Origin: Octopus vulgaris
Lineage: Eukaryota
Assembly (NCBI GenBank): GCA_951406725.2
Contig: OX597831.1
Location: forward strand, 37,634,001 to 37,698,000
Length of the DNA: 64,000 nucleotides
Direction: 5' to 3'
Below the pieces are notes generated by a model, which saw nothing but the letters and a program-made list of their open reading frames with translations, was not told where the DNA came from and ran no database searches. Below, in pieces: positions 244 through 49,623 of this stretch. Position numbers and translations under genes: made by a program. Position 1 is the first letter of the stretch; each line of letters starts with the position of its first letter.

Positions 244-304
244 CCCCTTCTTCAGTTGTCCCTGTTTCATCTACTACGCCTTACGAAGGTAAGGGCAAGA
301 TACG
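244..304 (-). ncRNA. Degenerate hammerhead-like motif, non-circular strand order (copy 1)
   Basis: Minus strand: cgta-TC-ttgccc-tta-ccttc-GTAA-ggcg...ggacaa-CTGAAGA-agggg; GAAA and stem III mutated. Confidence 0.4.
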
Positions 305-643
305 ACTTCTTTAAAATAGTCGTTCCCCAAAAGCAAATTAAATAAAATGTGAGATTTTTTGCGGAGGGTGAAAGTGCTTACAAGAACAGGACAGTGAGAA
401 CAAAACATTAAAAATAATAAAAAAGTAAAAGCATTAAAAGATGTGAACAAAATAAAAACAAACAATGAGGGTTGTTAAGTGAAGACGATGGAATAATAAT
501 TATATATGTATATATACATGCATATATGGGTACAGGACATCAAAAAACCGTTGAACACAATGAGAAACGAAAACATAAAAAGAAAAACATAGAAACGAAC
601 AACGAAAAAACATAGAAACGAGACATACAACATAAAGAATATT

Positions 644-702
644 CCCCTTCAACAGTTGTCCCTGTTTCATCTACTCCGCGTCGAAGGTAAGGACAAGACG
701 CG
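644..702 (-). ncRNA. Degenerate hammerhead-like motif, non-circular strand order (copy 2)
   Basis: Minus strand: cgcg-TC-ttgtcc-tta-ccttc-GA-cgcg...ggacaa-CTGTTGA-agggg; stems I (ttgtcc/ggacaa) and III (cgcg/cgcg) intact, core damaged. Confidence 0.45.
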
Positions 703-16526: not shown

Positions 16527-16706
16527 ATATTATATTCAATTAGAGATAAAACCACTATTAGGCAAATCATACAATGAAAAACTTAAGCCAATATATCTTT
16601 TAATAATTTTGTTATATTTTTAAATAATATAAATTAAATAATCTTATGTATTGGCTTAAGTTTTTCATTGTATGATTTGCCTAATAGTGGTTTTATCTCT
16701 AATTGA

Positions 16707-16715
<9 letters not shown>
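16527..16715. repeat. Perfect 67-bp inverted repeat with 55-bp spacer
   Basis: 16527-16593 is the reverse complement of 16649-16715. Confidence 0.9.
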
Positions 16716-16737
<22 letters not shown>

Positions 16738-16749
16738 TCAGTTATTCAT

Positions 16750-16935
16750 TTTCTTGTTTCAGTAATTTGACTGCGGCCATTCTAGAGCACCACATTTAGT
16801 CCAACACATTGAACTCAGGACTTATTCTTTGTAAGCATTGTATTTATTCTATCCGTCTCTTTTGCGGAACCGCTTTATTACGGGGACGAAAACACCACCA
16901 ACCTCGGTTGTCAAGCGATGGTAAGGGACAAGCAC
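16750..16935 (-). mobile_element. SINE family B 3' half
   Basis: ttgtttcagtaatttgactgcggcca...ggacttattctttgtaagc...ggttgtcaagcgatg. Confidence 0.8.
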
Positions 16936-17110
16936 GCGCACACACACACATACACACACACACACACAAATATATACATGGTATTTATAGAATGTTAAAC
17001 ACTTTCGGTATGTAAATTAGGGACTCCTTCGGAGAGTAATTGCTGCATTTGTTGAGTATATAAACCGTTTGTCTGCTTGTTTCTCTGGAGACTGTCAAAA
17101 TGATGTGGAC

Positions 17111-17153
17111 GCCTCTGATGAAAACCTAAGAAGGTTCGAAAATCGATTCAGGT
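17111..17153 (+). ncRNA. Minimal type I hammerhead motif with palindromic stem III
   Basis: gcct-CTGATGA-a aacct aaga aggtt c-GAAA atcgat TC-aggt; AATCGATT palindrome; base of stem II mismatched. Confidence 0.7.
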
Positions 17154-17225
17154 TGTTCATCATCTTTTTCGGTTTGCAGGGAAATGGCAAACATTTTCCC
17201 GGTTTACAATTATACCATATGTTAC

Positions 17226-17260
<35 letters not shown>

Positions 17261-17325
17261 AAAAAATACAAACTGGGACAAAAACATGTAGAAGACGATA
17301 CAAAAAACACGGACGGGACATTCGA

Positions 17326-17385
17326 AGCCTTCAATCTTCAGTCAAGAACCGGATCATCCTCGCAATTTCGGCTGATTAATCTTGA
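17326..17385 (-). ncRNA. Hammerhead-like motif in non-circular order, truncated at the predicted cleavage site
   Basis: Minus strand: tcaaga-ttaatc-agcc-GAAA-ttgc...tcttga-CTGAAGA-ttgaa-ggct. Confidence 0.5.
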
Positions 17386-17404
17386 TAATATATATATATA
17401 TATA

Positions 17405-17545
17405 TACGACAGGTTTCTTTCAGTTTCCGTCTACCAAATCATTTGGCCGGTCCGAGGCTATAGTAAGAACCACTTGCCCACGGTGCCAGGGAGTGGAACT
17501 GAACCCGAAACCATGTGATTCGGATACAAGCTTCTTACCACATGC
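17405..17545 (-). mobile_element. SINE family B 5' half
   Basis: ttctttcagtttccgtctaccaaatc...gaggctatagta...actgaaccc...aagcttcttaccac. Confidence 0.8.
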
Positions 17546-17546
17546 C

Positions 17547-17962
17547 AAAATGTTTCTGAAAACCCTTCTTTACCATACCTAGGGCACCTACAATAACTGG
17601 AATATTTCTTGCTTTAAGATGCCATATCTTTTGTATTTCAATTTCCAAATCCTTGTATTCACTTAATTTATCAATTTCATTTTTATCAGTGGGACCGCTT
17701 ACATCTATTAGTCTACAAGTATTTTCTTCCCTGTCTTTAATAAGTATGTCTGGTCGACTAGGTTGGATCGTTCTGTCCGTGTAGACTGGAAAATCCCAGA
17801 GTATAGTGACATTATTACCTTCAATGACAGGTGATTCTGTACCAGTAAGTAGGAGTGCTGATTTTGTAGTGTTTGCATATTTTCCGATGAAAATACTGTC
17901 CTACCGTATCGTGACAATTTTGTATACGTTCGGTGTCAGCACAGATCATCCCGAAACGAGAT
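17547..17962 (-). pseudogene. R4/Dong-type non-LTR retrotransposon C-terminal fragment (restriction-like endonuclease)
   Basis: Minus strand reads VTILWDFPVYTDRTIQPSRPDILIKDREENTCRLIDVSGPTD...YKDLEIEIQKIWHL...IPVIVGALG, preceded by HDTVGQYFHRKICKHY. Confidence 0.85.
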
Positions 17963-17990
17963 TACCACTACTACTACTACTACTACTACG

Positions 17991-18021
<31 letters not shown>

Positions 18022-18064
18022 TTATATACATGCACACCAACACACACATATATATAGGCACACA

Positions 18065-18222
18065 CGTGGTTGTGTGGTAAAAAACCTGCTTCCCAATCAC
18101 ATGCTTTTGGGATCAGACGCACTGCGTGTCACCTTTGGCAAGTTTTTCATAATATAGTCTCTGGCCGACCAAAACACTTTGAGTGGATTTAGTAGACGAA
18201 AACTGAAAGAAGTCCGCCGTAT
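18065..18222 (+). mobile_element. SINE family B 5' half
   Basis: gtggttgtgtggtaa...tttggcaagt...gagtggatttagtagacgaaaactgaaagaag. Confidence 0.75.
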
Positions 18223-49577: not shown

Positions 49578-49623
49578 GACACCTGATGAAGGCTGGAGGG
49601 TAAATCAGCTGAAACGTTGTGTT
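49578..49623 (+). ncRNA. Minimal type I hammerhead with palindromic stem III (AACGTT)
   Basis: gacac-CTGATGA-a-ggctg gagggtaaat cagct-GAAAC GTT-gtgtt; predicted cut after 49618. Confidence 0.75.

Follow-up and report, generated by a model that had tools for sequence, protein, structure and literature searches.

The stretch of DNA analysed here, a window of 64 kb in whose coordinates all positions in the window are given, carries on its minus strand (17257..17385) a copy of about 129 bp that we take, with a probability of roughly 0.75, for a 5'-truncated member of a Penelope-like repeat that is non-coding, tandem and targeted to (TA)n, starting where a permuted hammerhead ribozyme, itself likely self-cleaving, is predicted to cut, and likely reverse-transcribed from the 3' cleavage product. 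The fold proposed for that ribozyme is a hammerhead ring of the type SGC/CSG kind opened in its core, between A9 and G10.1/stem II, with two further helices, termed Z and H, at the junction. Hammerheads as such, types SGC and CSG, the hammerheads of Penelope-like elements (PLEs) and retrozymes are known already, and what the window adds is the mapping of copy ends in two subfamilies together with one compensatory change. We also lean, with rather less assurance, towards a wider proposition, namely that this is a seventh hammerhead topology in which the chain enters via the core (A9-G10.1) through the two extra helices, that it is active in vivo to judge from thousands of cDNA ends, and that it is at once the missing ribozyme of many Naiads and that of an actively spreading retrozyme-like repeat; the type CSG motif of nematodes would then be the same ring opened elsewhere, suggesting a route by tandem duplication.

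Read on the minus strand from 17385 to 17326, the window copy has the order UCAAGA-uuaa-UCAGCC-GAAA-UUGC-14 nt-UCUUGA-CUGAAGA-UUGAA-GGCU. The original prediction, which recognised both hammerhead core boxes and a perfect 6-bp stem I on this strand, is confirmed on re-reading. The 3' strand of stem I, UCAAGA (17380..17385), whose first base is both the predicted 5' end after cleavage and the boundary of the copy, makes six perfect pairs with the 5' strand UCUUGA (17342..17347); the CUGAAGA box (C3-A9) occupies 17335..17341, its first base being 17341, and the GAAA box lies with the stem III strand (A15.1-UUGC) at 17362..17369. The ribozyme 3' half further comprises UCAGCC, the stem II strand adjoining G12 (17370..17375), the strand Y' of a helix that would tie stem I to stem II (17349..17356) and the strand Z' of a closing helix (17318..17332, including GGCU at 17329-17326), and it is followed by a T-rich 3' tail (17257..17317) that ends in ...UUUUACA at the (TA)n target and has a 7-bp deletion relative to other copies, all of these features likewise lying on the minus strand. 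The predicted partner of the stem II strand (GGCUGG, at -22..-17 from the cut), that of the stem III strand (GC(A/G)AU) and residue C17 are missing from the window copy; in full copies the partners of Y' and Z' lie at -16..-9 and at -84..-70 (up to 15 bp), respectively. Lacking the cut strand (UH) and hence a scissile bond, the window copy is itself incapable of cleaving.

Homology of the window copy to full copies ends exactly at 17385, abutting a TA-rich flank (17386..17406), as had been noted for the first base of the stem I strand; the first U could just as well derive from the target, leaving an uncertainty of +/-1 nt. TA-rich sequence is found on both sides of the copy, and the (TA)n at its 3' end (17227..17256) is common to a Penelope-like end on the opposite strand. 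That Penelope-like end, tail to tail with the window copy on the same (TA)n, contains at 17111-17153 (plus strand) a canonical minimal type I hammerhead (ccu CUGAUGA, stem II, GAAA, palindromic stem III, UC agg). A canonical PLE-type hammerhead core, with stem II strands GGCUG/CAGCU that resemble X and II' of the repeat, is also present at 49583 (plus strand), and a SINE-like repeat with seven further copies in the window adjoins the 5' junction (17407-17543, plus strand). A search of Rfam gave no match in the whole window at the gathering threshold, within 16600-18100 none of its ribozyme families came up at E<=10, and the 64-kb window has no second copy of the element.

Elsewhere in the genome the element is abundant. 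An internal 25-mer has 1,554 exact matches in the 2.8-Gb assembly and its reversed control has none, so the element is not a product of chance; in the initial genome search 40 of 336 candidates were scored and gave 41 matches. An early count in which 21 of 29 copies started at the cut was discarded because the query began with TA and thus ranked such copies first, and sampling was repeated with internal patterns. The resulting main sample holds 93 copies from the first 100 among the matches listed for an internal pattern, seven having been omitted. In the remaining 8 of the 29 top copies of the TA-biased sample the repeat continues upstream, with gcaa, gcga or gtaa and then UA or UC before UCAAGA. 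The expectation that full copies would have gcaa-UH at this place was correct in substance: the sequence is gcaa/gcga-UC, and AUC precedes the cut in 56 of 58 scored full copies among the matches listed. The core (CUGAnGA, GAAA, A15.1-U16.1) is kept in 46-48 of 48 in-register copies per position, again among the matches listed, and the conservation counts of the GGCU columns and of residue 17 are forced, since the former lie in the search pattern and the latter in the filter. A younger sister subfamily, first met via contigs of 4 runs that were used as a lead alone, has 778 exact matches upstream of the cut and 1,184 downstream, with a mean identity of 98.5%; this subfamily (L281-L304, L305-L374) is very young and likely still moving. 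Its sample consists of 63 insertions that count as independent once a duplicated locus and six inner array units are removed, and leaves out nine listed loci on C2.

The strand order of full copies is Z - hairpin H - X (stem II) - Y - III'-AUC - I' - II' - GAAA - III - Y' - I - CUGAAGA - Z', with the predicted cut between AUC and I'. This order is seen as complementarity and conservation, and the three-dimensional fold is inferred from it. Per pair, stems I, II and III around the core are formed in 43-48 of 48 in-register copies among the matches listed; the same range holds for stem III, GC(A/G)AU with AUUGC, and the upstream strand X, GGCUGG at -22..-17, pairs with UCAGCC in 45-47 of 48 per pair (both likewise among the matches listed). 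Helix Y joins the strand directly after X to the bases just before stem I over 5-8 bp in three families; at one of its pairs 28 of 48 copies among the matches listed have A opposite C, a mismatch. The strand after CUGAAGA, Z', pairs to -84..-70, over 15 bp in the AATC subfamily, with hairpin H between Z and X. The pair of helices Z and H is present in 33 of 34 copies that reach this region, and no base is common to two helices. In the AATC subfamily none of 1000 shuffles matched Z with H, whereas under a loose test the same combination is at chance level in the GATC subfamily (276/1000), in family 2 (222-226/1000) and in one of two Naiad copies (528/1000). Between the old and the young subfamily one stem III pair changes from C-G to U-A and stem III gains two pairs, while stem I, X and the core are identical; covariation inside the family is a single pair. 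Nested folds with ViennaRNA, in which pseudoknots are not representable, give P=0 for stem I and P=0.01-0.58 for X:II', and yield Z, H and III with either Y or X, never stem I.

A descriptor made of stems I and III, the upstream stem II and Y matches three families in the genome, which carry unrelated helix sequences: the window repeat, the family of 244-702 and a Naiad family. It has 0 matches in 1.42 Mb of reversed or complemented controls. The second of these families is represented in the window by two decayed copies (244-702, minus strand) and in the genome by 1,844 candidates, and has the same core-opened layout and non-circular strand order S-G-C with different helices, in keeping with the earlier observation that the two motifs agree in strand order and differ in sequence. 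The assignment of stem II in the original prediction, agcc with ggcu after a 5-nt insertion, was not borne out. A downstream partner of this kind occurs in 456 of 2000 shuffles for the window repeat and in 380 and 872 of 2000 for the other families, which is chance level throughout, as compared to 8-9 of 2000 for the upstream X with Y of the window repeat and 75 and 55 of 2000 for the others. The conserved partner lies upstream, and the downstream GGCU is buried inside the longer helix Z, its pairing probability with AGCC being 0.0 in three folds; the computed energies are -4.2 kcal/mol for the downstream option, -8.3 for the upstream one and -21 for helix Z.

The downstream option, if it were the functional one, would make the element a plain type SGC hammerhead, with stem II formed by AGCC and the downstream GGCU (or by UCAG and UUGA) and the upstream pairing an off-state or by-product. 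Such an element would have the advantage of belonging to a type that is proven to cleave (HRIMA-1 and variants; Eckert et al., 2023, PMC10085705, in the sections available). The two strands are complementary and persist as AGCC/GGUU in the young subfamily, a 4-bp downstream option also exists in families 2 and 3, and family 3, known from one copy (L154:2150-2230, plus strand), has the order S-G-C with no upstream X or Y and may be a plain type SGC hammerhead or a decayed one. These points are outweighed in our judgement by the chance-level occurrence, weaker energy and burial of the downstream partner, by the upstream X, which covaries fully across families, and by the statement in the available sections of Eckert et al. 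(PMC10085705) that inserts of more than 1-2 nt after CUGAnGA are unknown, so that we hold a plain type SGC hammerhead to be improbable.

The distribution of 5' ends has a real edge, and this edge falls on the predicted bond. Among the matches listed, 24 of 93 ends lie at 0..+13, where 3.1 would be expected from the rate elsewhere, and 7 of 93 at 0..+2 against an expectation of 0.6; four of the 93 lie exactly at the cut, three of them after resetting by hand to 0, having been scored at -3 through chance flank matches. For the sister subfamily the count at 0..+13 is 21 of 63 insertions, where 2.0 would be expected; six of these end exactly at 0 (0.12 expected), and a further 9 insertions end at +14..+48. 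The 14 nt preceding the cut contain none of the 63 ends, a result that is weak alone because only about 1.4 would be expected, and 33 of 63 end further upstream, past the cut; in the main sample 60 of 93 copies among the matches listed run through the predicted site. The forecast that copy ends would pile up at the cut holds in both samples as a clear excess, and requires amendment as to the exact place, most of these ends lying 0-13 nt downstream, and as to the many copies that run through. It is clear, then, that most ends are a few bases inside the cut and that half to two thirds of copies come from RNA intact at the site. Given this accumulation of ends on the predicted cut and shortly behind it, the view that the window copy is an integrated cDNA of a cleaved RNA, as originally proposed, remains its best reading, and the genomic evidence suggests that the RNA likely cuts itself in the animal before being copied into DNA. 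At nine junctions across the genome the first 10-12 nt behind the cut have been copied again, at some of them several times, as expected if the reverse transcriptase (RT) slipped at the end of its template. At one group of 5' junctions (L251-L259) the repeated re-copying of the first 10-12 bases has the appearance of telomerase-like slippage.

The same ends might conceivably arise without cleavage, from a real RNA structure or recognition element that is not cut in vivo, by (TA)n microhomology at GAUUAAUC, by stalling of the RT or by transcription start. It is true that, of the 24 ends in 0..+13, 10 have their start on an AT/TA dinucleotide and that a lesser pile-up of 6 ends at -61..-48 is likewise on TA, both among the matches listed, and most copies run through the predicted site. 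The excess nevertheless persists away from such dinucleotides, with 14 ends per 799 nt at risk in 0..+13 at non-AT/TA positions against 29 per 9085 elsewhere, and AT/TA positions elsewhere are quiet (4 ends per 1329), these counts again being among the matches listed. An edge on the predicted bond, with the empty 14 nt upstream of it in the sister sample, and the retention of the catalytic boxes and of UH across unrelated families also speak against an uncut element, which we consider unlikely. A MITE, a DNA transposon bounded by terminal inverted repeats and inserted at TA, with the hammerhead-like motifs as passengers, would suit the TA flanks and one locus (L003) with an inverted tail copy at its far end. 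It is disfavoured, to the point of being very improbable, by the fixed 3' end with graded 5' truncation, the head-to-tail arrays and the inversions at variable points, which are retroelement traits described for PLEs in the literature available.

The repeat that carries the motif has a unit of about 720-870 bp from cut to cut, is non-coding and tandem, and has a T-rich tail. Sister arrays run head to tail with up to six units at a spacing of 843-857 bp; in the 843-bp unit the longest ORF is 57-62 aa, each unit has one hammerhead-like motif, and an ORF with GIY-YIG endonuclease and RT is absent from the unit. Among the matches listed, 76 of 93 copies run 3' into a TA/CA repeat from an internal TA stretch and 13 of 93 have a tail extension of about 40 bp. 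Inverted 5' copies and tandem copies are present, and the target is (TA)n. Comparison of the unit by blastn with 13 PLE, Naiad and other loci gave no match, and no continuation of an ORF was found at 30 loci located through the tail region. A piece of RT beside L042, considered as a parent, is a neighbour. Two young PLE families with a C-terminal endonuclease (EN) (L188-L200 and L260-L269), which we take to be Neptune-like, have near-identical long open frames and were set aside as parents, being without the core-opened motif; at the end of the L188 type stands a hammerhead-like variant with CUGUUGA, and a hammerhead core was looked for in the L260 type and none was seen. Diverged Naiad-like RT loci contained one Naiad-type motif and none of the window-repeat family, and Naiad RT matches in the genome are broken, with open frames of at most 292 aa among close matches. 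The helper is likely one of the two C-terminal-EN families, or else one that was not found.

One plausible course of events starts from a multimeric transcript in which every unit would be cleaved once, directly after AUC. An RT/endonuclease of the Penelope-like kind, provided in trans, would prime at the (TA)n target on the fixed 3' site of the unit and copy upstream. On cut, linear RNA the RT would run off at the 5' end or join within 0-13 nt, giving short copies such as that of the window; on uncut or re-joined (circular) RNA it would read through, giving long and tandem copies. The read-through or circular part of this cycle is as proposed for PLE hammerheads in the available text of PMC4209133.

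The Naiads offer the closest parallels. In the parts available of Craig et al. (2021, PMC8557442) these are described as lacking canonical hammerheads, with 'HHR_core' and 'HHR_half_core' alone listed, and as elements that target (TA)n, occur in tandem as well as inverted copies and have a tail of 30-40 bp. The consensus 3' ends of 32 of 54 Naiads in the supplement of that paper, each represented in part, were read by eye. The layout Z-H-X-Y-S-G-Y'-C-Z' is found at 10 of these 32 ends (Bfor, 3_Chem, Amil, Aacu, Anas, 2_Movir, Plae, Obim, Ovul and one further), with a stem I of 2 bp in Bfor and mismatches in Aacu. Intact type CSG motifs are found at six nematode Naiads (1-3_Nbra, Hcon, Hpol, Asuum), and in the other 16 of the 32 neither layout was seen in the stretch read. 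In type CSG, whose ring order is the same, stem II comes immediately behind CUGAnGA, and this supports X as stem II. The ends of Naiad-1_Movir, Ptep, Smim, Dst and 1-2_Chem have, in the stretches available, other structured motifs, including CCCC-CUGAnGA cores in another arrangement; the motif in Naiad-1_Movir is presumably twister-like, by resemblance. In the octopus genome a 20-mer of the published octopus Naiad end has 212 exact matches, and at one locus (L218) a Naiad-type motif is preceded, 1.5 kb upstream, by an RT frame whose E of 2e-5 does not reach the Pfam cut-off.

If the core-opened hammerhead does cleave, the stated limit of six possible hammerhead block orders falls, non-circular permutations move from anonymous environmental RNA to an animal genome with thousands of copies, and the Naiads' apparent want of hammerheads is accounted for. 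The mapped cDNA ends, for their part, offer genomic evidence that a Penelope-type ribozyme sets the 5' end of its RNA, a role previously only proposed.

A literature search over the papers available, with few subscription titles and with sections of the main text of Eckert et al., found no hammerhead opened between A9 and stem II, nor any non-circular hammerhead permutations in animal retroelements; the available parts of PMC13725137 and PMC10162972 describe other hammerhead variants only. With the Naiads, as described in the parts available, the window repeat has in common the (TA)n target, the tandem/pLTR and inverted copies and the tail of 30-40 bp, and differs from them in that it lacks an ORF and does not match the fetched Naiad loci in sequence. 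Non-LTR retrozymes are regarded as non-autonomous derivatives of PLEs, for which cleavage, circularisation and copying of more than one unit have been proposed (bioRxiv 10.64898/2026.07.22.740005; Cervera and de la Pena, 2014, PMC4209133, as far as available), and they resemble the window repeat in consisting of non-coding tandem units with one hammerhead each. Retrozymes carry type I hammerheads, whereas the window repeat has the order S-G-C rather than C-G-S, with full stems I-III; the hammerheads of non-LTR retrozymes and PLEs tolerate an unpaired base at the 5' end of stem II (bioRxiv 10.64898/2026.07.22.740005; PMC4209133, in the parts available). Type SGC, in the available description, shares with the window repeat the S-G-C order, a short linker from stem I to stem II, a full core and a helix by which stems I and II are linked at their far sides. 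In type SGC, however, block C is unbroken, whereas the CUGAnGA of the window repeat has no directly following stem II strand; its stem II and tying strands come from the 5' side, and helices Z and H sit at A9-G10.1, where Eckert et al. assumed a detour of the backbone to be impossible (PMC10085705, sections available). Type CSG, reported in those sections from two metagenome sequences alone (Eckert et al., 2023, PMC10085705), has the ring order I-C-II-Y-S-G-Y', which is that of the window repeat, and the two differ in where the chain is opened, between stem III and Y' in type CSG and inside block C in the window repeat.
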